Origin: a virus
Lineage: Duplodnaviria > Caudoviricetes
Length of the DNA: 51,103 nucleotides
Reading direction: 5' to 3' (one strand)
IMG/VR virus record: IMGVR_UViG_3300007094_000015
Coordinates: 1 to 51,103 of that record
Shown here: one piece after another, positions 1 through 47,553 of the stretch
Layout of the letters: each line of letters begins with the position of its first letter
How positions within the stretch are numbered: the first letter of the stretch is position 1
Made by a program: the position numbers and the translations under genes
The notes under the pieces: model-generated
What the model was told of the DNA's origin: nothing
The model's input: the letters and a program-made list of their open reading frames with translations, nothing else
Database searches by the model: none

Positions 1-1667
1 AGCCCTGCCACCAGCTCAGGGTCGCGGTCCTGCACGGCCCACGTCCAGCGACCGACGCACTCGGTCAGCGTCTCCCAGATCCCGCGTACCCACGTCGGAT
101 CGGCCTTGGCCATCGCCACGTCCTCGGCCAGCTGGTTGTGGTCGTACCAATCTCGCGAACCGAACCGAAACAGCAGGCCCTGATGCCTCGGCCGATCTAC
201 GCGCAACACTGTGCCATGGTCATCCAGCACCGTCAGGTGCGTGCCGTTCGCGATCACTACCTCGCGCAGGCCCTGCCCCTCAAAGTCAGTTGCTCTATAG
301 AGCCCGATACCCCTGATGCCGCTCTGCGAGCTGTCCACACGCCGGGCGGCCGCAGCCATCGCGACCGCGTGTCGCACCTGTCGGATTGAGTATTTCGACT
401 CATCGTCCTCTTCCGAGATAACAGCCTCGCCGCGGATCCCCACGATCCGAATCAATTCCTCCTGTGTGAGATTTCGCAAGCTAGAGATGCGGTCGGTCTT
501 TTTGTGATCCAGGCTGTAGACGTGAATACCGTGCTCGTCCTCGCAGAGCACGTCCATGCCCAGCGCGTCCAAGCAGGCTTGATGCTTGGCTGGGATCTCG
601 CCAGCAGCCAGCGACCGCTTGGCCAGCGGCTCATTGGTTTCGCGAGGCGGCCAGGGCACGGACTGCGCGAGGGCTTGCAGCCTGCCCCATGGCTCTGGCC
701 CCTCCAGCAGGAAGTCACGCAGGTCTTGCCCGCGTGTAGCTACCATCTCGTAGGGCAGGTCGACGCGCTTGACGTGTCCGCCGCAGGCACGGATCTCGGC
801 GACCCACTTGTTCGCGCCGATCTCGCCTGCGTCGTCGCGGTCGTGGATGACAATCACCCGCCGTGCGCGACACAAGAATTGGCTGATCCAGCGTGGATTC
901 TCGCGTGCCCCGCACGCAGTCGTCACTACCACATGATTTCCCCACTGGCTCTCGGGGATCACACTGCACAACGCGGCGAGGTCGGTTGGCCCTTCCACCT
1001 TCCACACCGTGTCCACGATTCCACCAGCTTGCAACAGCCGAACCGCACCGGCACCCACGATGCCGGGCTTGCTGCCGCGTACGTTTAATTTGCGCACGGG
1101 TGCTGCGGTGCCGTCCTTCGACCATTTGGGCAGGGTGGCCGACATCAGGCTCATCGCGACGTAGCCGGTGAGCGATTGCAGGTCTTCGCCCCAGATCTGG
1201 TACAGCAGCACAGCTTTCGACTGGTAGGTGCCCTGCACCGTACCGGCCCGCTCCAGTCCGATAGCAGAGATGCCCGGATTCGCGGCGCAGTAAAACGGCA
1301 CCGCGTCCGGGGACCAGGAAGACAGCGTGACCTGCTGCTGCGGGTCGACCGGCACCGGCGTTCGCTTCTTTTTCTGGCTGGAATCCATCCCAAGCCAGTC
1401 AGCTACCAGCTTCACGGCGTCGACGAACCCGACGCCCTGCAGCCAACCCACAGTCGCGAATCCGTCGCCCGCGTCACGCAGGCACTGGTTGCAGATCACG
1501 CCTCCCGTCGCCTCGAAGTCATCGAACACGCGAAACCTGTCCGTACCACCGCAGCGCGGGCACGGGTGGTGTTTCGCGTCCATCACCTCGTCTGGCAGCC
1601 CCATATCCCGGCAGATTGCTCGCCACTGCCCAGCGGCAGCAGCCTTCACGTCATTTTTGTTGCGCAC
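1..1667 (-). CDS. Primase-helicase, N-terminal part (Zn ribbon + TOPRIM), running off the left end of the window
   Basis: Not in the ORF track because it has no stop in the window. Hand translation from GTG 1667 (SD AAGGAG 7 nt upstream) gives MRNKNDVKAAAAGQW...HPCPRCGGTDRFRVFDD...ICNQC (P4-alpha-type Zn ribbon) and TOPRIM motifs VWKVEGPTD and VIVIHDRDDAG. No stop seen down to position 3. Confidence 0.9.
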   Translation of the reverse strand, partial: MRNKNDVKAAAAGQWRAICRDMGLPDEVMDAKHHPCPRCGGTDRFRVFDDFEATGGVICNQCLRDAGDGFATVGWLQGVGFVDAVKLVADWLGMDSSQKKKRTPVPVDPQQQVTLSSWSPDAVPFYCAANPGISAIGLERAGTVQGTYQSKAVLLYQIWGEDLQSLTGYVAMSLMSATLPKWSKDGTAAPVRKLNVRGSKPGIVGAGAVRLLQAGGIVDTVWKVEGPTDLAALCSVIPESQWGNHVVVTTACGARENPRWISQFLCRARRVIVIHDRDDAGEIGANKWVAEIRACGGHVKRVDLPYEMVATRGQDLRDFLLEGPEPWGRLQALAQSVPWPPRETNEPLAKRSLAAGEIPAKHQACLDALGMDVLCEDEHGIHVYSLDHKKTDRISSLRNLTQEELIRIVGIRGEAVISEEDDESKYSIRQVRHAVAMAAAARRVDSSQSGIRGIGLYRATDFEGQGLREVVIANGTHLTVLDDHGTVLRVDRPRHQGLLFRFGSRDWYDHNQLAEDVAMAKADPTWVRGIWETLTECVGRWTWAVQDRDPELVAG

Positions 1668-2226
1668 GTTCGTACTCCTTCCTCCAGAATCGTTCCAGCC
1701 AGCGAAATGCCATTGTCTCAGCCATGCGCGCCGTATCAGCGAAGATCCATTGGACTCGCGGAAACCGCTGCTGGTACGAGATGACACTTCGCACAAATAT
1801 CTTGCCGTTCAGCTCCACTGGCTTCACGCCATGCGATGGCGCTTGGGTCATGAGCGTGCCTAACGTCGCCTCCACGATCACCACGCCGCACTCCATCTCA
1901 TTTAGGCGGCCCAGCTCCTGCTCAAACCGCTCTCTGCGGCCCGGCAGATGGCGGTCGGCGTCCCGGCCCGTAGCCCAGCCAAGGATGGTGCCCCACGCGT
2001 CGGATTTAGCCTTGCGCTCGATGCCGACGCGGCCAACAAATCCCTCAATGCTGTAGTCGCCGTTGCTCTCCGGGTGCCTGCCAAGGCTCTGCCGCTTGGT
2101 CGGCACCACCAACTCGCGGTAGCCTCGATTTGCGTCTGTTCGCAGCCCCTGAAATGTCCACGCGTTCTGCTCCGCCGTGTCCACCAGCACGGTGAACGGC
2201 GCGACAGCCAGGTCAGACTTGGCCAT
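1651..2226 (-). CDS. ERCC4/XPF-type nuclease (putative junction resolvase)
   Basis: Motifs VLVDTAEQ, GDYSI and VGIERK match the ERCC4 signature (vDxREq...GDY...ERK). Confidence 0.85.
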   Translation of the reverse strand: MAKSDLAVAPFTVLVDTAEQNAWTFQGLRTDANRGYRELVVPTKRQSLGRHPESNGDYSIEGFVGRVGIERKAKSDAWGTILGWATGRDADRHLPGRRERFEQELGRLNEMECGVVIVEATLGTLMTQAPSHGVKPVELNGKIFVRSVISYQQRFPRVQWIFADTARMAETMAFRWLERFWRKEYERAQQK

Positions 2227-4225
2227 TGAACACCTCCCGCAACATCGTCTTGCGGTCGAACACGCTGGCTCGCTTGACCGCCGTCTGGGCCAGCTCCGCG
2301 TCGCCGATCAGCCACGTCGCCTGCTTCGCACGCGTGATCGCCGTATAAATCAAACTGCGATCCGCAAGTCGCTTGGCACCCGGGTAGGGGTCCAGTAGGT
2401 AAGCGATGTACGGTGCTTGGCTGCCCTGCGATTTGTGGACAGTAATCGCGTAGGCCAGCTGAAGCGCAGCGCCCGTCTCCTTCTCCTCGCTCTCATCGTG
2501 TAACGCGTAACGACTCACGCGCACCACGCGATGGGGCGCAAGCATCTGGACCGTCAGGCTCTTGGGCTCGATTTTCTGGACTACGCCAAACTCACCATTG
2601 GCGACGTACACCTCTCCAGCCTTGTTTCTGACCGCCTCGTCGCTGACCTCGCCCGCTGGCAGGAGCCAAGAGTTCTTCAGCGCCATGACCTTGTCCCCGG
2701 GCCGGAACGGCGTGCCCGCAGCCAGCTCGCCGGGATTCCACACCTGCTGCAACAGCTTGTTTACTTCGCTACAGCTGAGCCTAGATTTCGTGTTCACCGC
2801 GCACACGACCTGCAGCGACCACGGGTCAGCGTCAAGCGTCTCGATCAGCCCACGCAGCCGCAGCAGCGACTCCTCGTCGTTGGCCGCTGGCAGGTGCAGC
2901 AGATTGGTTTCCGGCTCGCCGTTCCAGTCTGGATGCGTCTCGAACCGCAGCCCCTGCCGGATCTGGACGCCTGCCGCGACAATGGCCCCAGCGTTGCGCC
3001 GAACTTGCGTCAGCGTGCCCGTGGGCACGAACTCCTCCATGTCTCGCAGCGGAGCACCGGGGCCGACCGGCGGAAGCTGGTAGGGATCGCCCAAGAAAAG
3101 GATATGCGTACCCAGTTTTGCCCGCTCGAACACGGCCGCCATCAACGGCAAGTCGATCATCGAAGACTCGTCCACGAACAGAAACTGCGTGTCGATGTCC
3201 TTCGCGAACTTGCTGCCGTCGAAGCCCATAAGCGAGTGTAACGTCTTCGCCCGCGCTTCCAGGTGCAGGTCCGCGAGCGCCTCACTGAGCCGCACCGCTG
3301 CCTTGCCGGTCGGAGCGGCGATCTGATAGGTAGCACCCGACTCGGCGATGGCGCGAATCACCTGCGCCGCTGTGTAGGTCTTGCCCGTGCCAGCCGACCC
3401 GAGCAGCAATCCGACCGGCGCGGCCAACGCTCGCGTCAGCTGTTCGTGCTGGTGCTCGCCGCCTTCCCACGGAGCGATGGCGGGCCACTTGTTCGGCTTG
3501 GACTGAAACTCGCGGATCATCTGGGCCAGACGCTGCTCGGTCTTTGCCATGCGCGCCTCGGCCAGCCACTGGTGGTCGCTGTCCCACGCTGGTTTGCCGC
3601 CTGCGTCGGTGTAAATGGCCGCCATCACACCCGCGCGAACGCCCAGTCGTACCGCACGCTCCGGGTCGACCTCCATCGCACCCACCGACTCGCGGATCGC
3701 TTGGTGCACCGCTGCTGCCGGGTGCCAGATACTGCCTCCGGCGTTTGCCAGCCAGTGCACGCCACACAGCGTCTGCCGTTTCAGCGCGCTCCGTGGCTTG
3801 CCCAAATCAAGATACAACCTATCGCACAACTTGAAGCCGACCCGGTCGAACTGGCTGAGCAAATACGGATTACGCTCGGCCAGCTCTTTCGCGCGCGGCC
3901 CCCACTCGTACGCCAGCGCGGCGGCCAGGTCGCGTGGGAAACCACGTCCCAGCAGCATCTCCAGCAGGTCGCCGACCAGTCCCTGTGTGGGCCAGTCCGT
4001 GTAGCAGAACGCAGCGAGCTGCGGTTCCGTGCGCCACTTACTTCGATAGCCAGTCATTTGGCCCCAGAACACACGCTTCGCGCCGTTGTGGATTGGCCAG
4101 TATTGCTCCTTTGCCTTGACTACCACGTCCCGCTCTGGCGTGCGCACCACGACCAGCACCGTGTCATTCTCCGCGCCCTGCCAGCGCTGCTTTTCTTGAA
4201 TCACCTGACCCACAATCTTTTCCAC
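2213..4225 (-). CDS. recD2: RecD2-like SF1B DNA helicase
   Basis: NPY..GFK..D helix-hairpin-helix region, Walker A GSAGTGKT, APTGKAA, Walker B VDESSM, GDPYQLPPVGPG, LAYAITVHKSQGSQ, YTAITRAK. Start moved to GTG 4225 after SD GGGAGG. Confidence 0.93.
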   Translation of the reverse strand: MEKIVGQVIQEKQRWQGAENDTVLVVVRTPERDVVVKAKEQYWPIHNGAKRVFWGQMTGYRSKWRTEPQLAAFCYTDWPTQGLVGDLLEMLLGRGFPRDLAAALAYEWGPRAKELAERNPYLLSQFDRVGFKLCDRLYLDLGKPRSALKRQTLCGVHWLANAGGSIWHPAAAVHQAIRESVGAMEVDPERAVRLGVRAGVMAAIYTDAGGKPAWDSDHQWLAEARMAKTEQRLAQMIREFQSKPNKWPAIAPWEGGEHQHEQLTRALAAPVGLLLGSAGTGKTYTAAQVIRAIAESGATYQIAAPTGKAAVRLSEALADLHLEARAKTLHSLMGFDGSKFAKDIDTQFLFVDESSMIDLPLMAAVFERAKLGTHILFLGDPYQLPPVGPGAPLRDMEEFVPTGTLTQVRRNAGAIVAAGVQIRQGLRFETHPDWNGEPETNLLHLPAANDEESLLRLRGLIETLDADPWSLQVVCAVNTKSRLSCSEVNKLLQQVWNPGELAAGTPFRPGDKVMALKNSWLLPAGEVSDEAVRNKAGEVYVANGEFGVVQKIEPKSLTVQMLAPHRVVRVSRYALHDESEEKETGAALQLAYAITVHKSQGSQAPYIAYLLDPYPGAKRLADRSLIYTAITRAKQATWLIGDAELAQTAVKRASVFDRKTMLREVFNGQV

Positions 4226-6489: not shown

Positions 6490-6576
6490 TCACTCTCCTA
6501 GATCACAACGACACACAACCCAACTCACGAAAGCGGCTAAAGCGAACGCCCCAGCCAGGAACCAAATAAAGGTCAC
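6490..6576 (-). CDS. 28-aa single-pass membrane microprotein
   Basis: GTG overlaps the csrA stop (GTGA). MTFIWFLAGAFALAAFVSWVVCRCDLGE fills the gap to the exonuclease gene exactly. Confidence 0.5.
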   Translation of the reverse strand: MTFIWFLAGAFALAAFVSWVVCRCDLGE

Positions 6577-6755
6577 GCGTCACCAGCCTTTCCGTCGCTG
6601 TAGATCTCGTCGTAGATCTCCTCGCGGTGGACTTCCAGGTCTTTCGGGGCGTCAATTCCGATCTTGACCTTGCCGCCCCTGACCTCAGTGACCGTGATGA
6701 CGATGTCGTGACCGATCCGAATGCGCTGATTCACTTGGCGCATGAGCACGAGCAT
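6573..6755 (-). CDS. csrA: Carbon storage regulator CsrA/RsmA (GGA-binding translational regulator)
   Basis: MLVLMR...IRIGHDIVITVTEVRGGKVKIGIDAPKDLEVHREEIY is the CsrA consensus, including the RNA-binding HREE Arg. SD AAAGGAG. Confidence 0.96.
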   Translation of the reverse strand: MLVLMRQVNQRIRIGHDIVITVTEVRGGKVKIGIDAPKDLEVHREEIYDEIYSDGKAGDA

Positions 6756-6847
6756 CAGCTACTCCTTTCGCTGGCAGACTCCTGTCACCTCTCAGATGGG
6801 TGACCTGCGAACACGTTAAGCGACGTTTACGCTGATTCGTCGCGGTG

Positions 6848-6916
6848 CGCGAAAGATTGGGCGAGGTCGCGAAAAACCCGCTGTGATTGCGCGAAAGTGT
6901 GCGTTTCTGCGCGAGC
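6848..6916. repeat. Phased CGCGA(AA) direct repeats in the attP arm region
   Basis: CGCGA starts at 6848, 6868, 6890 and 6910 (20-22 bp spacing, about two helical turns). Confidence 0.55.
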
Positions 6917-7056
6917 ACAATCCTGCTGAGACGGCAGCCTGAAAAACAGAGTCTGCGGTTTTTCGGCCGAAAACGACAAAAGCCGCCGCAGGGTTGCTTC
7001 CGCATCCCCGCGACGGCTTCTGTTTTGGCTTCGTCTGGATCCAGATTTGCGAGAAA

Positions 7057-8328
7057 TCAGCCGAAAAACTCAGGTGCAGTGGGGCCTGTATCGCCCATTA
7101 TTTGGCCCCCAGGAACTGCCCCGTGCGTCAAATTAGGCTCAAAACTGGACAAAACTGCTCGCCCTGTGCCACTCGGCTGCGTGGCTTGATGCCCGTTGAT
7201 ACTGGGCTGCGCGAAACTGCGGGCTTCGCCTTTGGCTTCGCCTGTGGCTTCGCCTTTTGCGCGTCGCAGGTGCTCGTCGGTGACCTGCAGGTAGTGACGA
7301 GCTGCGATTCGCGGACTGTTCCCGATCCACTGACAGACCACATGGATCGGGTAGGACTCCGCCAGCTCTGTCTCGCGGGTCGACCGCAGGTTCTGCCACA
7401 GTTTCGGCCAGACGGGCACCCCGGCCCGGCCAATGGCCCGCACCAGAATCGACGAGAGGGCCTGCCCCGTCATGCGGTGCCGGGCGACCACCCAGCGACT
7501 ACCGGGCTCGGCCGCGTGGAAACACCGCTCCAGCCAGGGTCGGATCTCGGGAAAGATCGGCACCAGCCGCGTCACCCCCGTCTTGGGGGCTCGGACACGG
7601 ATCGTGCCGCGATGCCAGTCCACGTCGTCCCACGTCAGCACCAGCGGCTCGCTGGGCACTCGCAGCCCGCCGTATCGCGCGAGCACCAGGATCAACCGAT
7701 ATTCGTCGTCCGTCAGCTGGTCGAGGACGCGGTCGATCACATCAGACCCGACGAACGCCATTCGCTCGCGGTTCTCTTGGCTGCCGAATCGCAGCCCGTC
7801 AAACGGGTTGGCTGCCAGCCATCGCTTTTTCACGGCGACGGCAAAGAACTGCCGCGCCCGCCGGGACCGGCCGTTGCTGGTGGCAGCCGCCTGAACATTG
7901 CGTTTCAGCCAGTTGCCAAACTCCTCCGCGTCGCCGGGCGTGATCGTGGCCAGCTGGCGGTCCGCCCCAAAGAACTCGATCAGGTTACGCCTGACGTGGC
8001 CGTAGCTGAGCAGTGTGCTCTGCTTGACCTGCAGCTGCGACCAAACGTATTCGAGCAGTTCACTCAGTGTGTGCACCCGCCGCTCTTCGATCAAACCACA
8101 GGCTGCTAACTTCTGGCTTAATCGACGATCCAGCTTGGTGACCCACACAGCAGTCGCCTCGTCGGGGGAAACCCCTGCGAGGCGGCTTGCGTTTAGGGCT
8201 TCGACTCGCCGCACCACCTCTTCCGCTGCACGCTTCTCAATTAAACCGAGTCGCAGGGTCTTTTTTGTGCCTTCCGACCTCCACTGTATCCACCAGTGCT
8301 TGTTCGGGCGTTGCATCAACGTAGCCAT
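7057..8328 (-). CDS. int: Tyrosine recombinase (phage integrase)
   Basis: Arm-binding N-terminus, SAM-like domain, ANPFDGL, GGLRVPSE (R), APKT (K), WQNLRSTRETEL, WIGNS, HYLQVT (Y). The QNLR/GNS variant is the one I associate with planctomycete integrases. Confidence 0.95.
   Translation of the reverse strand: MATLMQRPNKHWWIQWRSEGTKKTLRLGLIEKRAAEEVVRRVEALNASRLAGVSPDEATAVWVTKLDRRLSQKLAACGLIEERRVHTLSELLEYVWSQLQVKQSTLLSYGHVRRNLIEFFGADRQLATITPGDAEEFGNWLKRNVQAAATSNGRSRRARQFFAVAVKKRWLAANPFDGLRFGSQENRERMAFVGSDVIDRVLDQLTDDEYRLILVLARYGGLRVPSEPLVLTWDDVDWHRGTIRVRAPKTGVTRLVPIFPEIRPWLERCFHAAEPGSRWVVARHRMTGQALSSILVRAIGRAGVPVWPKLWQNLRSTRETELAESYPIHVVCQWIGNSPRIAARHYLQVTDEHLRRAKGEATGEAKGEARSFAQPSINGHQATQPSGTGRAVLSSFEPNLTHGAVPGGQIMGDTGPTAPEFFG
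7085..7097 (+). other. Putative attP core matching a tRNA 3' end (tRNA-Val-like)
   Basis: CCTGT-ATCGCCC-A equals the 3' T-stem strand, 3' acceptor strand and discriminator of tRNAs beginning GGGCGAT. It lies in the last codons of int. Confidence 0.65.
7222..7257. repeat. Three tandem 12-bp repeats GGCTTCGCCT(TT/GT), putative integrase arm-type sites
   Basis: ggcttcgccttt ggcttcgcctgt ggcttcgccttt; two degenerate GGCTTC copies at 12-bp spacing on the other side of the core (7015, 7027). Confidence 0.7.
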
Positions 8329-8605
8329 TCTTTCCCTCCCTCAAGTCTCGAAATTGGGCCAACTCACTCTTCTTGATTCGGACACGATTCGTAGCTGATC
8401 GAACGCAACTTAGCAGCCCTTTGTCCATGTAGCTGCGGACACTGGACTGAGACACTCCAAGGAAATTTGCCGATTCCTCGATGGTTAAAAACAGCTCGCC
8501 CTCTCCTGACACGCTCCGGGCAATCGCGCGAACCAAGGTTTCGGCTAACCACGATCCGACCGTCCTCGCGGCGTGTACGACGTGCTCCACGTCCTCACAT
8601 TCCAT
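8237..8605 (-). CDS. xis: Excisionase / HTH_17 (MerR-like wHTH) protein
   Basis: FLTIEESANFLGVSQSSVRSYMDKGLL...VRIKKSEL is the excisionase-family pattern. Immediately upstream of int, overlapping its start. Confidence 0.85.
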   Translation of the reverse strand: MECEDVEHVVHAARTVGSWLAETLVRAIARSVSGEGELFLTIEESANFLGVSQSSVRSYMDKGLLSCVRSATNRVRIKKSELAQFRDLREGKNGYVDATPEQALVDTVEVGRHKKDPATRFN

Positions 8606-8758
8606 GACACTCCCTCCAGAATAGACACCTGCCCATGCGCAGGAGTTGCCGTCGAAACTAACGGCGGGTAAAACACAGATCCCGGCCAGAGATACGCGTC
8701 TCTTGCGCGTGTCTTGCCCGGCAGGTGGTTCGCGCCGCCTGCCGGGTCCGGGCTTTTC

Positions 8759-14686: not shown

Positions 14687-15553
14687 TTAGCGGTTCAGCT
14701 TGCTGTTGATGGCAGCCTGAATCGCGTCAACGGTTCGTATTGAGAGGCCAGTTTCCGGGTCGCGTTCGAGGTTAGCCGAGGCCCGGCCAGATGGACGACC
14801 GATTGTCGTCTTGGCGCGGCTCTTAGCCTTGTCGGCGATGACCTTTTTCTGCTGGGTTTCTGACACCCAGGAGAAACTGGATCGCATCGCACGCTCGAAC
14901 AGGTCTTCGTCCTTGGCTTGTGGGTAGGCTGTCTTCAGAGCATTAAAGCTGCGAAACAACTCGACACGATTGCGAACCTCGTTGGAGGACTCTGCAAATC
15001 GGTCGATACCACCCTTGCCAAAAACGGAATCGTAGCCGTCGCCCAGTTCGGAAACTTTTGCGTCGAACCAGCGGGATAAGTTGTCGCCAGTCAGACTACC
15101 CGGCGCGCCCGTCTGCTGTAAAGACGAAGTTAGGGCTTCGATCTGTGCAGCGTAAAACTCGTTCATCTGCTGAAGCTGCTCGACGAGGTGATCGTCGTAG
15201 GTGTCATCCAGATCCAGCTCGAACATTTGGCCCGGCGTCGGCTTGGCTGCAAAGCGCCCCTGCTCGTCACGCAGCTGCTCCTGCTTGCCGTAGAAGTCGA
15301 TGGCCTTGCGGTCGAGAGCCGCGACCAAACGCTCCACGGCCGGAGCATCGAGCCCCTCCAGCTCTTCGTCGGTGAAGCCAGACGCCTTGGCCGCCTCCAG
15401 AATGGCGTCGGCTGGGTCGGCGGCGGGCTCAGGTGCAGCAGCCTGCGGCTCCTGCTTGGTTGCGGCAGCCAGGACAGCGGACAGGTCCGGCACGTCGTCC
15501 GGCCTGCTGTCGTCGAGCGGCGTGGTCGGCGGATCGAGAGTGTGGTGGGTCAT
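14687..15553 (-). CDS. Scaffolding protein (putative)
   Basis: Acidic, helical, low-complexity; RDEQGRF motif; basic C-terminus; directly before the capsid gene. Confidence 0.65.
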   Translation of the reverse strand: MTHHTLDPPTTPLDDSRPDDVPDLSAVLAAATKQEPQAAAPEPAADPADAILEAAKASGFTDEELEGLDAPAVERLVAALDRKAIDFYGKQEQLRDEQGRFAAKPTPGQMFELDLDDTYDDHLVEQLQQMNEFYAAQIEALTSSLQQTGAPGSLTGDNLSRWFDAKVSELGDGYDSVFGKGGIDRFAESSNEVRNRVELFRSFNALKTAYPQAKDEDLFERAMRSSFSWVSETQQKKVIADKAKSRAKTTIGRPSGRASANLERDPETGLSIRTVDAIQAAINSKLNR

Positions 15554-24268: not shown

Positions 24269-24479
24269 CGCGCAGTGTGCTTTCCGCCTCCTTTCGCTTC
24301 AGCGCCTTCTCCAGGTGCCGCGAAAAGAAGTCTTTGGGGTTTTGGACGGCGTAGGCCAGCAGGGCCACGGCTCCCGATGACGGCGGGTTTGCCACCAACG
24401 CAGCCTCGTCAGGCGTGCGAACACGCGGCAGTGTGTGGTAGACCCAAAGGATGTCGTCTTCTAGTGTGCTGTCATTCAT
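24036..24479 (-). CDS. Putative terminase small subunit or terminase-associated protein
   Basis: ATG 24479 overlaps the giant gene stop; helical/coiled-coil; directly upstream of and overlapping terL. Confidence 0.45.
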   Translation of the reverse strand: MNDSTLEDDILWVYHTLPRVRTPDEAALVANPPSSGAVALLAYAVQNPKDFFSRHLEKALKRKEAESTLRDDQRKFHDLFDQLDQQFAEERASQRQCPYCARPFGHTAVLQAGAKGSAGQRRVPSARAGHGDEEPGHPPAALEHEQP

Positions 24480-27400
24480 CTTTTTCAGCCAGCCGTTTCT
24501 TGAGTCGGAACAAGGCGATCTTGCGGCCACGCTTGAGCGCGTCCTCGATCATCTTGGCGTGGCGCGGGGTCATGGTTTCGGGGAACTTACGGTCCTTGAG
24601 GGCGTTGTAGCTATACTGCCCCGCCTCGCGTGCGTACGTCTCGTAGTCTTTCATGGACACAGGCTTGCCGTCGATCTGGGGATAACGCGGCAGCTCGGTG
24701 GAAATGCGATCGTCGTCCTTGCCTTCCGCCTCCATCTGCTCGTTCCAGCGGCGGATTGCGATGGACACGGGCAGCACGTCACTGATGTACTTGTGCTGCA
24801 CCGGGACCAGTAGCCGCCAGATCACCGACGTTTGCGGGCTGCTGGTTCGCATTGGCTTACCCCACAGGTCATAGCGATACGCGTAGCCGACGCCAGGCAG
24901 CTCTGCCTTCATCATCAGCCGCTTGATTCGCTCCTGCGTCGTGTCGCCAGGCTTGGAGCCAGTGTCGGTCACTACGTTGCGCAGTTCACGCTTTGTCTGG
25001 CGATAGAGGTTAGGCACAAATCCAATCGCCACCGAACCAGCGTAGTCGATTGCCTTGCCTGACATGTTCTGGTCAGAGTTGATGATCTCCAGCAAGTCTT
25101 CGATGGACTGCATGTAGTTCTTGTCGTCGACCTGACGCAGGAACGACGTGGGGATGGCGGCTATTGGATTGCCACCACGCTTCACTTCGTGGGCAAAGTC
25201 CACGGCCGACGACAGCATGGTGTTAAGGGGTTCGATGCGAGCATAGGAGTAATACGAACCCCAGAGGCGAATCGACATCGGCGGCGCTGTCATGTACTGC
25301 AATCCACGGCGGCCTGAATTGACCGCCTTAGTGCCGGTGATTCGCGGCAACCCATTTTCGTCCTCGTCGTCTACCATCGAGGCCACGGCCGCCATCAATG
25401 CCGTCGCCACAATCTGGCTGCCGATTGCCCGGTTCCAATTCACGTTCTCACCGGACAATGCGTTGATGGCGCTAAATACAAGGCCGACGCCCGGCGTCAA
25501 CTCGGACACTCGCGAAAACGAGTTAATGAGGAACGAGCTAAACGGCAGCATGTATCGAACGCCGGGAATCGTCTTGAAGCTGTTCACGCCCTTCTTGGCA
25601 GCTTTTGCGGTCCTTCCACCTTCTTGCTGGAAGGTCTGTAGATCTGCCTCGGCCATTGCCGCCTGCCAGACTGGGCTGGAGTAGTCACGGACGTGGCCAG
25701 CAACGAAGTCGGACATCTTTTCCGGCTTAATACCGACCTGCTTCCCGAGTCGATACGCTTCAATGGCAGCTGCCCCGTGCGCGGCGATAGTGCGAAAGAA
25801 CTCGTCGGACATCTGCAGCAACCGGAAACCTGGAGTCCGCACGACCTTGCCGATGGTGCCTGGCATGGCGTACGAGGGCACCATCATGTTGTTGAACTCG
25901 TCGCTGTGCCCAGTCATTAGGTTGATGGGACTGTATTCCGAACGAAACGCCGTGAGGCTGTTGTTGAATGCGTGGCCCACAGCCTTGCCCATGGCCTTGA
26001 ACATCTCGGCCATTTCGCGCATGTCGCGAATCTCGTTGTCATTCGACAGCTTGCCCCGGGTCAGTTTACTGACGGCAATCTCCGACATGCGCTCAACTGT
26101 GTTTGTCCACATCAGATTGAAAGTGTTGCCAGCCAGGTTGGCGGCGTGCGTCTTCCAGCCGGACAGAAGTGAGTTCAGGTAGAACTCATACACCATGTCC
26201 GCAAAGGCCGCTGGCTTGCCCTTGGCGTGCCGCTTCTTCTCGCTGAGGATGATACCCAACGCCTTGGTCACCAGCTCCAGGTTCTCCTCCAGATCCGGAC
26301 TGTTGATGTCAATTCCGGCCTTCTCCAATGCCTCGACGATCTTTTTCACCAGCTCTGAGTCAGTGCCCTCGAATACGTTGTGGATAATCGCTCGCCGCAG
26401 TCGAGTCTTGGGGTCGCGGGCGATTGGGTCACGCAGCGAAAGCGAGCGAGCCAGCTCGGTGCGGGTTTGCCGCCAGCCATTGACGAGCAGGGACATGTCC
26501 TTTAGCGACTTGGCGTCCTTGCCCATCGCCTGCGATACGGTCACGTTGTCGATAATACCCCGGAGCGTCGCGTAATCCGCCTCGCTGGGCAGCGGCGCGA
26601 AGTTGCCGGACCGGAACCGCTCCAGGAATAGCTGCGTTTCCTTCTGCAGGCCATCACCAGCGAGGCGTGCGGCAGCGGCGGCTTCTGCTTCCGAACGCGG
26701 ACGGTTCTCCGGCAGGCCACTAAAGATGTCCTGCTCATAAACCTGCGAGCGGCCAGCTACAGTGGAGGCTGGATTTGCCCGACCGAACGCTCGCTGGACG
26801 CGGGCTCTCTCCTGCTCCTCGCGACGGCGGCGAGGGCCGGGGAGAGGAGATTGCTGGAACTGGACGTAAGAGCTGATCCCAGCTGCCTTGGCGAACTCAG
26901 GCGAAGTCAGTAGGCTCCTGAACGTATCAGCCGCTTCCTGCATCTCGGGTGACTGATATTTCCATTCGCCCTCGTTCTTGCCAAAGAGCTTGGAAATCAA
27001 CTCCACCAGCCATGCCCAGCCAGTCGGCTTCTCCTTTAGTAGCGAGTCGCGGAACGTGGCGCTAGACATAAACTCCTGCACCATTCGCGCGACGCCCTCT
27101 CGGTACAAGAGGCTTGGATTCTTGTCCAGGAGCTTCCTGTATTCTGGAATCGCAATCTCGTAGTAGTCCTTGGCAAACCGAGCGACCAAGTCCTCGCCAA
27201 ACAACTGGTGCAGGCGGTCGATTGAAGCCGCGTGAGCCAATTCATGGCCGACGATTCCCCAGACTTCGTCGAGCGTGTTGTTGAAAAGGATTGCGCGATT
27301 GAGAAAGACGTGATTCCGATACGCAAAACCACCGATTCCTTGGCGATCTGACGCAAAGAAATCAACAGTGACTGGCAGGGTTCCCACTCCCGACATTTTC

Positions 27401-30400
27401 ATGCGGTTGAAAAACAGGCCAATGTCTGTTGCCAACTGGAGCGCTTTGGCGTCTTTGGCTTTTGTGCTAGTGATGTCGTCCCAGCCGGGCGCAATGATAG
27501 AGCGTCCTTCTCCGAACCCTGAATCTAACCGAGTACCTTCCGCGCGGCCAAGGACCTTGATCTTATAGCCAAACCGCTTCCCAAACCTATCGGCGACCCT
27601 CTGCACGGTCCCTTGCGTTGCAACTCCGGTATTGGTGTAGTACGCGTCACCGTCACCTTTTGCAGCTTGGTACTCAAGCCGCCCCGTAAACCACGAGTCT
27701 GGCGGATACGCGCCCTCAGAAAAGGTTTCAAAATCGGGTTCGTATCGCACAGTGGAAGCTCGGCGAACCTCCGCTTCTTCTTCAGTAAGCGGGTTAGCAA
27801 AGTCCTTGGCGTACTGCACGACAGACTCAATGCGTTCGGCAGCTGGCTTTGCAGAAAGGGCCTGTTGTGGTGTTTGCGAGTCAGCCGCAACACTCTCCTT
27901 GCCGTCGCTTGCAAACTCAAACAACATTGCGGCTAACTTCGCTGCGCGACGTTGCTTATTGCGAGTGGTATGTATAGAAACAGACCCCCCTTCAATCCAC
28001 GGGACGCCGCCGATAGCCACAGCTGAATACTCAGTGTTAAATTCCAAGCCGAGCAATATTGCACCAGTTTTCGAGACCTTTTCGTACTCCTCCTCGCTGG
28101 GCTCCGGTATTTTAACGACCCCAATGTTGTCGCCAAACATCTCCACCTCCAGCTCGCTGCGCCTGGGGAACATGTCATGCCCCATCGGACGCGGCAGCTC
28201 GCTCTGGCTCACCATGCGCACAACACCCTTTGGGCCGTGCTTGTCAATCAATGCGAGAATCTCTGCGTGGTTAACCTTCTGAGATTGAGATGATGCCTTT
28301 TTGCCACTTCCTGTGGTTTTCGTCACGCGACGCAAATCTTCAAGTAGCGCCGCAGTGTCCTCTGGTTTTTGAAGCGGTTCGTCAAACAGAAAAACCCTGT
28401 CCATCGCATTCGCAAGCTCGTCATTCGACTTGATGAGCGAAGTTTTGCCTTCGCTAAAATCCAATGTCTCCACGCTTCTTGGCACCACTGAGTCCCGGTA
28501 AACAATCAGCTTTCCACCTGCCGTCCTCGTCGGCCTGGACGCAGTGCCTGTACCCGCGACTGGTGCTGCAGGAGGTGCTGCAGGAGGTGCTGCAGGCGGA
28601 GCCTTTGCCTCCACCTTCTTGCCCTTCTTCTTCGGCGGGGCGGGTGGAGTGGACGGCTTTGCGGCGGCTTTGGCGGTTACAGCGGCATGAAGCGCTCGCA
28701 GTTGCCCAAGGCTGGACGCGTCACTGTACTTGCCTTCAGCCCATCGCCCAGCACTCGACAAGAGGCGAAAGGTGTCGGCGGGAAACTGATTTGGATCAGT
28801 TGTCGAGAAATCATCCAACAGCAAGGCGACCCTGACGAAGTCTAGAGCCTGAGGTTTTGTCGCAAACTCCTTCAAAGTCATCTGAAGCGGCATGGACTGG
28901 ACAAAATAACGGCCTTTTGGCTTCGAGGAAGTCCCTACATCCATTTTATAAATGGCCAGATTGCCGTACACAGTAGCGTCAACGGTATCACGCCACGGCT
29001 TTCCCGCGTCGTCCGTGCCTGTTCTTTCGATTTTCTGCCGCTTCCCGCTAGATGCGTTTGCATCAGCTGCAATTGCGATTCCCTGCCTTAGCTCTTCGAC
29101 TTCGGCTTGCTCCTTGCGATTTTTCTCGGCAGCCGCTTGCGCCTCCTCCTGCTGCTGCTTTTGCTTAAGCTCCCTATGCCTAACGTGCTCTAGCTTGTGC
29201 TCTACTGCGGCCTTGTTGTGCGCGTAATACGGATTTTCCTGCCAAGACAAGTCAAATTTTCCAACGTCCTTGTCATCGTCAAAGTCGCGATTGAACGTAA
29301 GGATGTCGCTGCCATCTTTGTCTTTGCTCGCGGTAAACACACCCCCGCCAGCAGTCAGTTCATCCTCCGGGCTGCGCACCACTGAGCCACGAACGTCACT
29401 GTCGTTGCCTTCACCCATCAACCACAGCTTATTGTCCACAAAGTAAGCAGCACGCCCTTGTTTCTGCGCTTGCTGCATTACAGCTTTCACAAGATCACTG
29501 GCCTCGGACTTTTCACCTATCGTGACGCCTTCCAGGCTTGGCGCGTCAGGCTGCTTCGCCTCGGGCTTCTTCTCTTCGGCAACCGGCTGCTTTTTAGGCG
29601 TTGCCATGGGTGACTTGGGATCGCCCATGCTGCCGATCCAAATTGGCGGCAGCTCGCCAATGGCGACGTACTTATCGCCTTCTCGCTTATACCGGCTTGG
29701 TATCTCAGGTGACTCGTACGCACTAACATAAGTCACGTCGAAAGGCGTAGTACTACTTCTTGGCTGCAGAGTAACGAAGACCTGCTGTTTTTTCCAAGCA
29801 CCTTCGCCACTTGAGGTCGACTTACTGGGTTTGAATGCTGATTTATAAAACAAGGTAAACGCGTCTTGCTGCCTCTCTTCATTGTATTCGTGAGTAACAG
29901 CGACCCCTGTCTCACGAAGACGTGATAGTTCCGCTTTGATAAAGTCTTTGCTTGCTGTTTTCCACTTGTTGCTTGAACTATCCCAGTATGGTTTTATGGA
30001 AGACAGAAATTGATCTACAGACAATTCTGGCTGCGAGGCTATTACACGTTGCTGCTTCTTGCCCTTGCTCTTCTCAGGCTTCGCCTTGGGCTCCACGACC
30101 GGCGTAGTGGAGGCCGGGGACGCCTTAACTGGCTTACTGGCGTCCTTCTTGGATTTAGCGTCCTTCCAAACGTACTGGTCGCCTTCGCGGACATATTCCT
30201 TAGGAAGATCTTTAGCAAATCCCCACTCGTCGACTCGGTCTGCTGGCAGCGGCAGTTTCTCCGCCGCTAGGTCATACAAATACCCCTCTGCAAGTCGCCT
30301 CTCTTCGGCAGATGAGCGTAAATTGCCAAGAGCGCTGCGACCCTGCTCCGTGAGCATCCCCTTGCGCTTGCCTTTGCCTTCCACGTCACCATTGGCCACT

Positions 30401-33400
30401 AATTCGGCTATCTGCTCGTCAGTCAAAGGCTCATAGCCGCGCCTAGCAGCTTTGTTTGAGATCGACCGAAGCCTGCGAAGACGCTCCGCATTATCCATTG
30501 CAGCAACCGGCTTCTTGCCCTTTTTAGGCACAGATTCAGCCTGAGGCTTGTTCGCGTCTTGCGCAGTTACCTTGCGAATCAGGTCTAGCGTGCCCTCGGT
30601 TGAGAAGTTCCTCGAACTAATTTCACCGGCTGTGTATCTTCCATACAGCGAGAAGTCTTTCTTCATTCTCTTTTTTATGTCAAGGAGCCACCCGTCACCG
30701 CCAACTGCGTTCTTAATGCCGATAATCAGCCGATGCACTGCCACGTCGTACACGCCGCCATAGTCACTTGCATCTTTGTCGCTAAGGAAAGCATTTGGCG
30801 GAAATGGTTTCTTTGCGTCATTGCGAGGCGTGCCGTCGCCTTCAAAATCAAACACAAGCGAAGCTACCTGCGCAATTCGTTCAGCCTCTTGGTAGTCGCC
30901 CGTACCTAAATGAATTCCGCGATTCAGGCCTTCCCCTAGTACGACAACATCATACATCGCCGTGCCAGGCTCCCTGATCACGGCCAAGTTGCTTCCGAAT
31001 ACAACTGCTTCAGCGAGGTCGAAAGTGTCAGCAGATGACTCGTATGACTCAATCCCCAAGGTGTTAAGATCAATCTCTTGCACCACTCCGGCTGGTGCGT
31101 ACTTCTCAACGATCTCCTTGATCTGGCTGCGCATCTCGTTCACTTGTTCGTAGGCAGCTTTGGCCCTGGCCATACCATCCGACAGCTTCTTGCCCTTCGA
31201 CTTGTCGGGCTTGGGCTTGGGCTTATCTTGCTTCTTGCCCTTGGACTTGGGCGGGTCCGGCTTCTTCGGTTCATCAGGCGGCGGCGTCGGAGTTGGCGTC
31301 GCAGGTGCCGGGGGCGGAGTCGGAGTCGGCGGAGTTCCTGGCGGAGGCGTGTCCGGGTCTGCTGGTGGATCGGTGGGTGGGTCGGTGGGCGGATCCTCTT
31401 CCCAGAACTTCTTGCCACCGCGATCAACCCACTCCTGCATGAACTCGTTGTTTACGAATTCGACGTGGCGTCCCGTACCTCCCTCGCGTTGCACGTCCTC
31501 CACGGCTTTTGCCAGTCCGTTGCCGAACGCAGTGGACATGGACGCGCCCTGATTCATGGCGTCCACGGCATCCTTGGCGTGCTTGGCTGCAATGTCCCGC
31601 AGGGCATTGATCGTGTCGGTGTCGAGCGGCTGGTCGGCGTCCGTCGGAGGCGTATCGGGCGTGGCAGCTACCGGCGCAGGGGCGACGGGAGGCGTCGGCG
31701 TTGCTGCGGCGGGCGGGGCGGCAGGCGGGACAGGAGGAGCAGGCGGAGGAGTGACTGGCGTCTGCTGCGGCGGGATGGGCTGCGCACCAACGCCCTTGCC
31801 ACTGGTCATGGCGACAGCCACCATCTCGCGCAAGTCGTCGTCTGTCAGTGACTTCAGCGCTTTAGTGCCCTTTTTAGGCAGCTTGATGCCAAACATGTCT
31901 GCCAGAGACAGTAGTCCATCACGGTCCTCGCCTTCGATCTGCTTGTATACCGCTTGGGCAGCATCAGACAGCGGCGGACGCTGTGGCGTGTCCTCCTCGA
32001 CTGGCGTTTGCGGCTGCACCGGCGCGGCGGGAGGCGGCACGGGCGTCTGCTGCACTGGAGGCTGTGGCTGAACCGGCGCTGGCTGCACTGGAGCCTGCGG
32101 CGGCTGCACTGGCGGTTGCTGAACCGGAGCCGGGGCGACTGGCCTGCTTCTGGCCGCCTCAGCCTCTCGCCTTGCCATCTCCTGCTTGATGATGTCCTGC
32201 TTGTTCTTTCCACCTTGTTTCCGTAGCCGATTACGCTTGTCACGGCGCAAACGCGTGTTACCGCCAAACAAGCGACGCAACTCAGAAGCGCTCATCCCCT
32301 GCATCTGCTCGTAGGTTAAAACATCGCGCTTCAGGCCCTTGTTAGGCTTGCCATAAGCTGGGTCAAGGTCTTGAATGCCGGGCTGCGCTGGAAGCCCGTA
32401 GCTTTCATCCAGCGGAGCGGTTTTGGGCTGGGCCGCTTGTGGCGAAACACCCGATTTAATCGCCCGGTCGATTGACTTGGCCTCTGCGACCCACTCGCTC
32501 ATGTTGGAACGAGCTTTTTTACCCCAGTAGTTGGCCAGCGTCGCCTGTGACGTGCCCAGGATATTGGCGAACTGCTTGCGCGACACATTGTGCGGCAACT
32601 TCGCCAATGCACTTGCGACTTCGGGGTACTCGTTCAGAAATGCTGTCGACGACCGATAGCCGGGCGTGCCGGATCGTTCGGCTTCCAGCGAACCCACCAA
32701 CGACTGCTCGCGCTTCGGACGGCGGCCAGGAATCGCGGTGCCTGTCTGGGACTCGTAAGCAGTAGGCGGCTCTTGTCTTGTGATGTTTGCGGATTTGGGC
32801 GACTGCTCCAGCTTGCTTGGCTGCGGCAATGGATTGTCTGCCGCGTACTGATCTGCCTCGGCTTGCAGCCTTGCCTCTTCCTCGCGATACGCGTTTTTGG
32901 CGCTGCGAGTCTTGGCCTGCTCAATCCGCTGCGGAACCTGCGAGGCCATGCTGATCGCACCGCCGCCAGCTCGCATTCCGGCCCACGCCAGGAACTCCAC
33001 GCCCAGCTGCTCAGCGGCTCGCTGACGAGCTGCGGCACGCGCTTCTGGCGTGTCGGCCGTGAATGACTCAATGGCCGCACCCGTCACGCCGTAGCCACCT
33101 TCACCCAAGGCTGCGCCCATGCCGATTTCAGCAACGCGCTCCTCAATAAGTTCGCCCAGCAGCCCGTGGACGCCCATCTTGCGCATGACTTCGTTCGCGC
33201 GCGTCGGGTTTAGTCCTGTGCTTCGCTTGACCGTCAGCGCGAGCCACTCACCAAGCCCCTTTTCGATGCCAGTCGGAGGAATGAAATTGCCGATCTGCTC
33301 GCTGGCGACGTTAATAAACTGCTCAACCGCAGCTTTAGCAGCGGCCGGTACTGCTGTCTCGTTGGGATCAGCAGCCAGGCGGTCGGCCGTGCCTTTGGCC

Positions 33401-42706: not shown

Positions 42707-43297
42707 ATGGACGAACGCGTCTCCAAGAAGTCGACAGACCACAGACACTTCGGCCGCTGGCTGAGCGACGAGGAGTTGGAAGCCCTTAAACGCACCGAAC
42801 TCATCCTGCCCATCATGGCCTGCTGGCTGCCCATCCTCGCCCAGATGGCCAAGGACAAGGGCATGCCACGCACCAAGTTCATCCGCAGCCTAATGGAGAA
42901 AGCCGCCAGGCAGATGGGCTACCCGCTGCCCAAGGACCGCATCGGCTGGAAGCCCAAGCGAAAGAAGACCAAGGCCGAGAAGGCACGCCATCTCAAGAAA
43001 CTTCAGATGCGACGGTACAGGGCTCGGAAAAGAGAGGAGCTGGCACGGGATCCCGAGTGGTTCTGGTCGCCCGAAGGCTACGTCGGGACCGCCGACCTCG
43101 ACTCGCTCGGCACCACCGCAGGCATGGTCGACCATCTCGGCGTCTGGCATCCAGAGTCGCACCGCTACACGCCAGCCAGAATAGCCGCCGCGTGCCAGAA
43201 GGCGATGGACGAAGGCGAGCTGGATGGCGAACGATGGCAGCTTTTCGTGCGGAGATATGGGGGAGGGGGAGGAGAAGTGGGTGCAGATTCCGAATAG
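42707..43297 (+). CDS. Putative DNA-binding regulator (ribbon-helix-helix-like + basic helix)
   Basis: SD GGAGG before ATG 42707; LAQMAKDKGMPRTKFIRSLMEKA resembles RHH helices; Lys/Arg-rich segment; divergent from the late promoter. Confidence 0.5.
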   Translation: MDERVSKKSTDHRHFGRWLSDEELEALKRTELILPIMACWLPILAQMAKDKGMPRTKFIRSLMEKAARQMGYPLPKDRIGWKPKRKKTKAEKARHLKKLQMRRYRARKREELARDPEWFWSPEGYVGTADLDSLGTTAGMVDHLGVWHPESHRYTPARIAAACQKAMDEGELDGERWQLFVRRYGGGGGEVGADSE

Positions 43298-43299: not shown

Positions 43300-43720
43300 A
43301 CCACGCAGGGATCTCGCGGCGCGGGCGCGGGGGTTCGGTAAAGTCTTGGTCGGCCTTGGGTCCCTCCGGGTCCCCCCCTGCCCTGCCCTGCCACTATCCA
43401 CCTGGTCCGCACCGTGCCGATGGCCGCCGTGCTGGCCGTGATGGGCCACGCTGGCCCCGCTGCATGGCCACTATGCACGGGCAGGACGGCGGATCGGCGT
43501 CCGGCCGAAGCCAAACCCGAAGCCACGGCCACGGCATCGGCGACGCGGTGACGCGGTGACGCGGTCGGCGACGCGGGCGACGTGAGCCAGGTGCACCGAC
43601 GGCGTCGGCCTGCCCGCGACGCGGTGAAGGTCGGCCGCGGCCGACGCGTTGCATGCCCGCGCGGGCGACGCCGCCCGCCCCCCACGCCCCCCGATGAGCT
43701 GTCAGCATGACGCGGCGAAT
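43300..43720. repeat. Very GC-rich non-coding region with GACGCGG, GCCACG and CCCTG short repeats (candidate packaging/terminus region)
   Basis: gacgcggt gacgcggt gacgcggt cggc gacgcgg at ~43541-43577, more copies at ~43618 and ~43709; ccctg x3 at ~43376-43390; no credible ORF. Confidence 0.55.
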
Positions 43721-43736
43721 TTCTGGCCCTGCCCGA

Positions 43737-43765
43737 TTGACAAATCCGATATTACTCGATACCGT
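43737..43765 (+). promoter_or_regulatory. Strong sigma70-type early promoter
   Basis: TTGACA-N17-TACCGT about 70 nt upstream of the first early gene. Confidence 0.7.
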
Positions 43766-43834
43766 GGCCGGTCCACGGCCAACGCGTGTTGGTTGTGGTG
43801 TTGATTGAGTGTTGATGATTCTGGAGGCATGGAC

Positions 43835-44383
43835 ATGAAATTCGAGTCGATCGGCGAAACTACAACCGTGACAACGGCCAACACCGCGCACTTGGCGCTT
43901 CAGCTGGCCAAACTTCCGCCCGGACGATATACGATTAAGTGGGCCATGGAAGGGTATGAAAGCACGACCGCTTTCGGCGTCACGGTCCTGCCAGTTGATG
44001 AGGCCGGTGACATGGCCGCGTTGCTGGCCGACGTGACGGAGCGTATCGACCTTGCAACCGGTCGTTTGCTGTCTCGCCTTGTGGCTGACTACCCGCCATT
44101 TACGCGAGACTTGACGCAACAGCTGACCGACGCGGTGACATGGGGCCAGTGGTTGCATTCTCGCCATTTGGCCGCGGGCGCTTATTGGTGCCTGGGGCGC
44201 GACATTGACGCCATTCTGGATTGCGTCTCGGAGGCACAGAGCTGGCAGCCGGAACAATGGCTTGTCGCGTTGGCCGCGATGCGAGCTCCACGGTGCACGT
44301 GTTGCGGTGACGTGCCGCGTTGGGTGAATGAAGCGGCGTATATGTCGCGCGTCTGCCTTGCCATTCTCCCGATCGGCGATTAG
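43835..44383 (+). CDS. Early hypothetical protein
   Basis: ATG 43835 is 7 nt after GATTCTGGAGG. Confidence 0.65.
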   Translation: MKFESIGETTTVTTANTAHLALQLAKLPPGRYTIKWAMEGYESTTAFGVTVLPVDEAGDMAALLADVTERIDLATGRLLSRLVADYPPFTRDLTQQLTDAVTWGQWLHSRHLAAGAYWCLGRDIDAILDCVSEAQSWQPEQWLVALAAMRAPRCTCCGDVPRWVNEAAYMSRVCLAILPIGD

Positions 44384-44492
44384 TGGCCGCCTGCCTGCCC
44401 GAACCTGATAGCTGGCCAGCGGTGACACGCTGGCCAGCTCGATGGCCCGGGCAGTCGACGCGGTCGACGCGGGGAAGTCTAGATTCTGGAGG
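44384..44492 (+). ncRNA. Intergenic structured element, copy 1 (long hairpin + CTAGATTCTGGAGG box)
   Basis: CTGCCCG/CGGGCAG stem, AA/CC loop, CC/GG, UGAU/CGAU loop, 12-bp stem AGCTGGCCAGCG/CGCTGGCCAGCT. Confidence 0.7.
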
Positions 44493-44500
44493 TCGAGACA

Positions 44501-45363: not shown

Positions 45364-45372
45364 AGCGGGACA

Positions 45373-46172: not shown

Positions 46173-46180
46173 GTTCGATC

Positions 46181-46486: not shown

Positions 46487-46517
46487 TTTTTCTGGTACTA
46501 GATTCTGGAGGTGGACA

Positions 46518-46989: not shown

Positions 46990-46992
46990 ACG

Positions 46993-47544: not shown

Positions 47545-47553
47545 AGGATCACC

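Follow-up and report, generated by a model that had tools for sequence, protein, structure and literature searches.

Which molecule, if any, reads the short sequence box that recurs at the ribosome-binding sites of early genes in a csrA-bearing phage? The question is raised by IMG/VR virus record IMGVR_UViG_3300007094_000015, which we analyzed over its full length of 51,103 bp (the window; CheckV completeness 100%, labelled 'linear', G+C content 60.6%). To judge by its int and xis genes, the freshwater phage is temperate. A first-pass annotation of the window had proposed a translational shut-off circuit in which the phage CsrA protein binds the GGA of the box and so blocks translation. Genes were named by Pfam and PHROGs searches of the open reading frames (ORFs) of the record, and the gene starts (n = 47) were curated by ourselves from ORF lists and inspection of Shine-Dalgarno (SD) sequences, with no gene caller.

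The box is a strand-specific extension of the SD sequence that marks seven early-type genes, namely the five genes of a rightward operon (g1 to g5), xis and the primase gene (Table 1). The 9-mer ATTCTGGAG is present in ten exact copies in the genome, or in 23 copies when up to one mismatch is allowed, compared to 7.9 +/- 3.0 in shuffled sequences. It ranks among the commonest 9-mers of the genome, and is the only one of these that contains A or T. The 10-mer ATTCTGGAGG occurs in eight exact copies where 0.07 would be expected, a number that was reached in 0 of 100 shuffles, and the full 14-mer CTAGATTCTGGAGG in four exact copies and one with a single mismatch (18 copies versus 2.4 expected with up to three mismatches). 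Of the ten exact 9-mers, seven stand in front of a start codon in coding orientation, one is an orphan (49095-49103, plus strand) and two are intragenic (11508, 15395). In six of the seven box genes the GGAG(G/A) of the box is itself the SD sequence, and the primase gene has its own second SD (AAGGAG) downstream. GGAGG was found in SD position at 13 of the 47 curated starts; it is preceded by ATTCT in six of these 13, and g3 has ATTCTGGAGA. Late genes, by inspection of their starts, have mostly a weak SD or none. The first-pass annotation had placed the box over or before the SD of five early genes, xis and the primase gene, and its strings and its coordinates for the latter two are correct.

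Several observations on single copies or on other interpretations of the motif should be recorded here. An exact ATTCTGGAGG at 15394-15403 (minus strand) lies inside ORF 14687-15553 with no start codon downstream, and may be due to chance or be a further site. A promoter interpretation, with TAGATT as the -10 element, was rejected: the element is absent from three of the eight copies (g1, xis, primase), there is no shared -35 element, and the strand scan was negative. Additional pairing of the box with the 3' tail of 16S rRNA does not fit the usual tail, which may not be that of the host. RNA duplex energies were set aside because the calculation permitted unrealistic loops.

In order to follow the box in relatives, we compared contigs from four freshwater/aquatic metagenome runs (X1 to X4, 80-95% identical) over positions 43600-49300. 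In the X1 contig, g1 differs at 99 of 498 nt (around 80% identity) and the region upstream of 43841 cannot be aligned. Despite this unalignable flank, the same contig reads TAGATTCTGGAGG, 6 nt and GTG in front of g1. In the X3 contig, the end of the second intergenic region and the box (45364) are kept, followed by seven bases and the GTG of a different gene. As judged from these contigs, the box survives in relatives in which the flanks or the downstream gene have changed. Several contig joints also fall at box edges, but since the joint sides are 23-27 nt long, a length prone to repeat artefacts, we count them only as a hint of cassette exchange at the boxes.

More distant sequences did not extend this picture. 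An IMG/VR search with the g2 protein yielded 34 loci with up to 49% identity, and the box was absent upstream of the g2 homologue at all 34. The exact 14-mer had 94 single matches in IMG/VR, without tblastx similarity to the phage record, and a variant with one changed base (guessed from the LQSLA homologue described below) had 70 equally unrelated matches. As exact and variant matches are alike unrelated, both are at chance level. With g2, CsrA and the 14-mer as queries, no close relative of the phage was found in IMG/VR.

Start-codon register, strand specificity and retention in relatives together suggest that the box most likely acts in mRNA, at translation initiation. Of the proposed shut-off circuit, a non-random, strand-specific box that is kept in relatives in SD register thus stands, whereas specific evidence for CsrA as its reader was not obtained.

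The intergenic regions of the rightward early operon have a common architecture. In the three regions after g1, g2 and g3, the stop codon is followed by an imperfect hairpin of about 80 nt, a spacer, the box and the start codon. The three hairpins have the same shape and different apical sequences, with compensatory changes in 10 of 29 consensus pairs, and are reminiscent of intercistronic sites for RNA processing or stabilisation. A further repeat, GACGCGGT, occurs 13 times versus 3.6 expected (positions include 43542-43625, 44129, 44457 and 45325, plus strand). Four copies cluster upstream of the operon, others precede boxes 2 and 3, and the repeats are present in the contig of a relative as well (X4 loose end). 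These repeats may function as operators or iterons.

For the orphan copy of the box, the first-pass annotation had described a hairpin with the box in its loop, and this hairpin is real, with long, fully complementary arms (Table 1). Its minimum free energy (MFE) is -38.6 kcal/mol on the minus strand and -39.2 kcal/mol on the plus strand (z -5.9 and -6.1). There is no start codon behind the orphan box on the plus strand. The local gene runs in the opposite direction (ORF 48444-49148, minus strand); it is TGATG-coupled to the preceding gene, and its putatively secreted product has a signal-peptide-like start. As the orphan box is antisense to this ORF, the local minus-strand RNA carries a perfect 14-nt anti-box. 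This anti-box is complementary to the boxes of g2, g4 and g5 at 14 of 14 positions, to that of g3 at 13, to that of the primase gene at 12, and to those of g1 and xis at 10. The box of the primase gene shares the flanks of the orphan (AACG before, AA after). By our own arithmetic, a particular 14-mer has a probability of about 4e-4 of turning up in 2 x 51 kb. On the minus strand, the apical loop CUCCA exposes an anti-SD sequence, and the remainder of the anti-box is partly paired. A sigma-70-like site (TTCTCA-16-TATACT, 9/12; 49167-49140, minus strand) ends 6 nt before the stem, and a T-run (CUUUUUGCUC) follows directly downstream of the stem on the minus strand, so that a separate transcript of about 75 nt could arise.

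The protein encoded by ORF 48444-49148 has five relatives that are 91-95% identical overall. Between positions 9 and 25, these relatives depart from the phage protein at 8 of 17 residues, yet the residues encoded by the anti-box (FLQNLA) are unchanged. A homologue with 67% identity keeps LQSLA within an otherwise different N-terminus. An AGG insertion that runs X3 and X4 show behind 49064 corresponds to an extra proline in the five relatives. W9R, I24A and P25L concern paired stem positions and, to go by the codons, could be compensatory (T-A to C-G, G-C to G-U).

These observations lead us to a model in which the box would serve as a shared translational operator in mRNA that switches seven genes together, and in which the reader would more likely be a base-pairing RNA than CsrA. 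The putative minus-strand RNA would display CCUCC within the 14-nt complement of the box, and could thereby block ribosome access at all seven genes; it would be the 5' portion of the 48444-49148 mRNA or else the RNA of about 75 nt from 49167-49140 to the T-run. CsrA would act more broadly, on its own two-GGA leader, on host mRNAs and on any exposed GGAGG leader, and at the box genes would contribute at most an additional layer of lower specificity. Antisense pairing explains both the 10-14-nt conservation of the box and its location at ribosome sites, and we tentatively favor it, at less than even chances.

A number of points weigh against antisense pairing. The hairpin is located inside an ORF that is coupled by TGATG and looks like the start of a signal peptide, and because of this coding context the conservation of FLQNLA could be a matter of the protein. 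Nucleotide conservation and stem compensation at the anti-box are inferred from the proteins of the relatives. Half of the anti-box is paired within the predicted hairpin, and the promoter-like match is within chance (1 found versus 1.4 expected in the region). On the plus strand the hairpin folds equally well (z -6.1) and then shows a CsrA-like GGA hexaloop. Finally, we know of no described trans-acting phage RNA that hits seven ribosome sites.

The csrA gene itself is well supported. Its product matches Pfam PF02599 with an E-value of 3e-23 and 82 bits (cut-off 27) over profile positions 1-51 of 53, and scores 80.9 bits in a six-frame Pfam search. It also matches phrog_9500 ('CsrA-like regulator', E-value 1.9e-21) and RsmE in PDB entry 2jpp (E-value 3.9e-14), with a gapless alignment across residues 1-54 to RsmE and likewise to E. 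coli and other CsrA chains. Mutagenesis work has assigned RNA binding by CsrA to residues in beta1 (2-7) and beta5 (40-47), including R44. According to the alignment, the phage protein retains L2, L4, R6, V42, H43, R44, E45, E46 and I47, and its changes T5M, K/R7Q and V40L fall in these two regions. The Swarm-seq paper offers nothing on the variant residues. By sequence, the phage protein is a member of the CsrA/RsmA family, with predicted dimerisation and RNA binding.

A relative of the csrA region is found on a 4050-bp metagenome contig (L147) with the same order of int, non-coding stretch, csrA, exonuclease, RecT, DUF669 and helicase; the contig ends before it reaches a box site. The exonuclease is 92% identical and CsrA 90% identical between phage and contig, and the 620 nt surrounding csrA are 95% identical. 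Five further CsrA proteins from other metagenomes are 90-95% identical. From the domain match, the alignment and the conservation in relatives, it follows that csrA is intact and under selection. Both GGA motifs in the csrA leader are identical in L147, with two spacer bases changed, and folding of the leader is unremarkable (z +0.85 and +0.45).

If CsrA were the reader of the box, its dimer would bind the GGA of the box and a second GGA nearby and block ribosome binding on seven early mRNAs, and the plus-strand orphan copy would be a high-affinity hairpin decoy site. CsrA is the sole RNA-binding protein recognised in the genome by Pfam and PHROGs, its key RNA-binding residues L2, L4, R6, V42, H43, R44, E46 and I47 are retained, and the GGA sits within the SD of the box genes. 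All seven box leaders contain 2-4 GGA motifs between -40 and +12, where 0.8 would be expected per 52 nt, and the boxes are accessible since the surrounding RNA is unstructured (local folds with z -0.65 to +1.50). The plus-strand orphan folds as UUCUG[GAGGAA]CAGAA with GGA in the hexaloop and has another GGA downstream, and CsrA relatives (90-95% identity) as well as box-bearing relatives occur in other metagenomes. However, CsrA-type proteins reportedly read about 5-7 nt around GGA, from work on RsmE-hcnA and from SELEX, and the conserved AUUCU/CUAGAUUCU half and the 10-14-nt identity of the box exceed what CsrA is known to read. The target consensus is A(N)GGA / CANGGANG, and every copy instead has UUCUGGAG, in which C occupies -2 and U both -1 and -3, a departure from the consensus at -2 and -3; the first-pass annotation had itself pointed out a departure from ANGGA. 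In MFE folds, GGA lies in a predicted hairpin loop only at g2 and the orphan, two of the eight copies; the copies have no hairpin in common, and the local folds are no better than those of shuffles. GGA counts do not separate box leaders (mean 2.57) from the seven non-box GGAGG leaders (1, 4, 2, 3, 1, 2 and 3 motifs; mean 2.29). Both RNA-binding regions contain substitutions (T5M, R7Q, V40L), and a scan of the plus strand found neither a promoter-like nor a terminator-like site at the orphan, which counts against a decoy. The claim that CsrA reads the box gained no specific support, and we regard it as rather doubtful, ranking it behind antisense pairing. A joint circuit is quite improbable in our estimate, whether in its mechanism, in which the anti-SD RNA would pair with the seven boxes and CsrA would bind the GGA of box or hairpin and tune or compete, or, with no better prospects, in its role as an RNA-level immunity or timing switch beside or replacing a classical repressor. 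The suggestion that CsrA stands in for a missing CI-like repressor is weakened by the antisense box copy and by two weak ribbon-helix-helix ORF leads.

Two further explanations dispense with CsrA and with antisense RNA alike. The box could be a strong portable ribosome-binding cassette (A/U-rich patch plus GGAGG) without a dedicated trans-acting reader, spread and homogenised by recombination between gene cassettes; where it follows the long intergenic hairpins, it might in addition be cut by an RNase E-type enzyme. This would fit the GGAGG at box genes, as opposed to the mostly weak or missing SD of late genes, the shared hairpin-spacer-box layout with its compensatory hairpin changes, the different gene bordered by the box in a relative (X3 loose end), and the joints at box edges; cassette shuffling at repeated regulatory motifs (PeSL) is known from T4-type phages. 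It fails to explain the gene-less orphan copy and its unchanged codons, exact 13-nt identity persists in a relative that is only about 80% identical in the adjacent gene, and the 23-27-nt joint sides are possible repeat artefacts. We consider such a cis-only module unlikely, and place it after CsrA binding. The box could also be a DNA operator, a 14-bp asymmetric site at which a phage repressor (for example, one ribbon-helix-helix-like ORF product) blocks transcription in the manner of stoperators. Many asymmetric 14-bp copies in short intergenic spaces, an orphan that would be a further operator near a promoter-like site, two weak ribbon-helix-helix leads flanking the early operon, and GACGCGGT repeats that point to DNA-level sites nearby would all be in line with this. 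From their sequences, the products of ORFs 42707-43297 and 47058-47267 are candidate transcriptional repressors, as leads only, and neither ORF has a Pfam or PHROG hit. However, an operator needs neither a fixed 6-8-nt register with start codons nor a GGAGG that acts as the SD in six of seven copies, and the orphan, as the only one of eight copies that is not co-oriented with transcription, points against the local direction. A DNA operator is therefore last in our ranking, and the least probable of all. Antisense pairing by the putative minus-strand RNA remains our preferred reading of the box.

Table 1. Positions of the features discussed in the text (spacers were counted from the end of the 10-mer to the start codon)
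Feature	Position	Strand	Details
Primase ORF	3-1667	-	Start GTG 1667; leaves record at left end
Box before primase GTG 1667	1681-1690	-	Spacer 13 nt; inside 3' end of ERCC4-type nuclease ORF
28-aa hydrophobic ORF	6490-6576	-	GTG overlaps csrA stop; stop 3 nt before exonuclease ATG
csrA	6573-6755	-	60 aa, intact, ATG start; Pfam PF02599, phrog_9500, RsmE 2jpp alignment
csrA leader, two GGA motifs	ACAGGAG 6779-6785; SD AAAGGAG 6762-6768	-	SD 7 nt upstream of ATG; by inspection
Non-coding int-csrA stretch, candidate attP and csrA promoter region	6756-7056	-	95% identical to L147
Tyrosine integrase (int)	7057-8328	-	Pfam/PHROGs
xis-like HTH_17 excisionase gene	8237-8605	-	Pfam/PHROGs; start 8605
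Box before xis (start 8605)	8613-8622	-	Exact 10-mer; spacer 7 nt
ORFs flanking early operon, weak ribbon-helix-helix leads	42707-43297; 47058-47267	+	ESM Atlas 0.88-0.90
Box before g1 (start 43835)	43818-43827	+	Exact 10-mer; spacer 7 nt
Long hairpin between g1 and box 2	44385-44465	+	MFE -58.7, z -5.0
Full 14-nt box before g2 (start 44501, phrog_2554)	44479-44492	+	Spacer 8 nt
Long hairpin between g2 and box 3	45255-45333	+	MFE -53.6, z -2.5
Box before g3 (start 45373), last base A	45351-45364	+	Spacer 8 nt
Long hairpin between g3 and box 4	46060-46133	+	MFE -52.8, z -2.3
Full 14-nt box before g4 (start 46181)	46159-46172	+	Spacer 8 nt
Full 14-nt box before g5 (start 46518)	46498-46511	+	Spacer 6 nt
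Terminator-like hairpin and T-run closing rightward early operon	46996-47025	+	13 pairs, then CCTTTTTTTG
Hairpin with orphan box 49091-49104 (+) in 40-nt loop	49069-49134		Arms 49069-49081/49122-49134, 13 nt, 100% complementary

The csrA gene is located between the integrase gene, with a 300-nt non-coding stretch, and the genes for exonuclease, RecT, helicase and primase. The first-pass annotation had placed an intact csrA between attP and the recombination genes; gene and neighbors were confirmed, and attP is plausible only. In the non-coding stretch we noticed TTTCGCG three times, at intervals of about 20 nt, as well as a hairpin with a T-run directly after int (6848-6896 and 6960-7010, minus strand). 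These could plausibly be attP arm sites and an int terminator, with attP as a candidate. Between csrA and the exonuclease gene, the small hydrophobic ORF has 25 of its 28 residues identical in L147, with mostly silent DNA changes, and its product is probably a small membrane peptide that is made together with CsrA. A search of IMG/VR with CsrA gave 17 loci with 37-62% identity. One of the closest (phage L036, CsrA 59% identical) has 4-5 tandem 11-nt GTGTGGACACC units at about 2250-2320 (minus strand), some 1.7 kb from csrA, which might represent iterons or else a series of small hairpins with GGA loops.

Among the other genes, Pfam and PHROGs identify a PolB-exo-like exonuclease, a RecT-like protein, DUF669, a RecD/Dda-type helicase and an ERCC4-type nuclease, and the structural genes (major head, portal, terminase, a 3258-aa ORF) form a long leftward block. 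The 3258-aa ORF (24472-34248, minus strand) makes up one fifth of the genome, has internal GCTTCTTGCCCTT-type repeats and matched no Pfam or PHROG family; its product could be an injected virion protein. At the record ends, the frames of the primase ORF (3-1667, minus strand) and of 50291-51103 (minus strand) do not join, and a little sequence may be lacking from the record despite the completeness estimate of 100%. The non-coding region 49860-50111 contains many GCAACC/GGTTGCGG repeats in both orientations, as well as a CA-repeat and a CT-repeat. A perfect inverted repeat with 12-nt arms 42 nt apart (49873-49884/49927-49938) encloses the start of ORF 49440-49895, and another lies within the non-coding region (50069-50078/50093-50102). 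No tRNA was detected in the record, and an Rfam search gave 0 matches at E-values up to 1. With the terminase as query, 0 loci were found in GTDB genomes, and the best identity to GenBank phages was 31% or less.

Together, the box and its antisense copy would be a new, as yet unproven variant of post-transcriptional early-gene control. The genome offers a small and concrete set of candidate cis targets for a phage-borne CsrA, plus a competing antisense reader, and the identity of the reader would tell whether phages time their own genes with CsrA or merely reprogramme the host. If antisense pairing is true, a trans-acting phage RNA might control a whole early regulon. If neither CsrA nor antisense RNA reads the box, it would still be a clear portable ribosome-site cassette at mosaic boundaries.

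Among known systems, CsrA/RsmA genes on mobile elements are the obvious point of comparison for the csrA gene, which is phage-borne here as well. A plasmid reportedly carries the CsrA/RsmA homologue RsmQ (PMC9928087). In GenBank phages, tblastn with the present CsrA detected homologues in 88 records (Pseudomonas 46, Vibrio 30, others), all with at most 52% identity and annotated as carbon storage regulator. Phage-borne CsrA genes are widespread according to these records and to published surveys, of which one described 30 csrA+ phages with RsmM-type genes (Sobrero and Valverde, 2020; PMC7366521), and the other many phage RsmA genes from GenBank and IMG/VR, with a proposed suppression of host CRISPR-Cas (Campa et al., 2021; PMC8450108). 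Knock-down of the phage csrA gene PTXU04_00028 led to smaller plaques, in a study which notes that the part played by phage csrA during the life cycle had until then 'not been previously tested' (Adler et al., 2025; PMC11879866). A phage csrA is therefore not new as such, and the present gene is a member of a published class. The action proposed for published phage CsrA/RsmA proteins is on the host (CRISPR-Cas repression, behaviour), whereas the box described here is on the phage's own early genes. In the passages of the literature covered, we found no proposal that a phage CsrA targets a conserved box shared by early genes of the phage itself.

With respect to the protein, the RsmE-hcnA complex (2jpp) is a close parallel: RsmE belongs to the same Pfam family, aligns without gaps over 54 residues, and the phage protein largely keeps R44 and the beta1/beta5 residues. 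As with the CsrA/RsmA/RsmE repressors in general, the candidate targets have GGA in the SD, and the leader of csrA itself has two GGA motifs. Differences are that the gene is phage-borne, that the protein carries T5M, R7Q and V40L, and that the box has neither an A(N)GGA context nor a hairpin-loop display.

With respect to the box, the closest known logic, as far as the cited T4 work is covered, is that of RegA and RegB, with a shared operator on the ribosome sites of early genes. RegA acts on the ribosome sites of about 30 early mRNAs, and RegB targets a single-stranded 11-nt site that begins with GGA and lies in early SDs (PMC3014915, PMC1702504). The additional information for RegB lies 3' of the GGA and is degenerate and A-rich, whereas the conserved part of the box lies 5' of the GGA and is exact. 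By PHROGs and Pfam, the phage has no RegA or RegB homologue. The c4 RNA of P1/P7 is said to be a stem-loop antisense RNA that acts on the icd-ant ribosome site, in one operon and from a neighboring locus. The putative RNA described here would likewise be a stem-loop with exposed bases complementary to a ribosome-binding region, but a single anti-box would serve seven dispersed ribosome sites, and it sits in a coding region. Stoperators are not known to have a fixed register with start codons. In Cluster A mycobacteriophages they are DNA sites for the immunity repressor, present as many 13-14-bp asymmetric sites in short intergenic spaces of a temperate genome (PMC9283540, PMC6550527). In contrast to stoperators, six of the seven box copies in front of genes supply the SD sequence itself.

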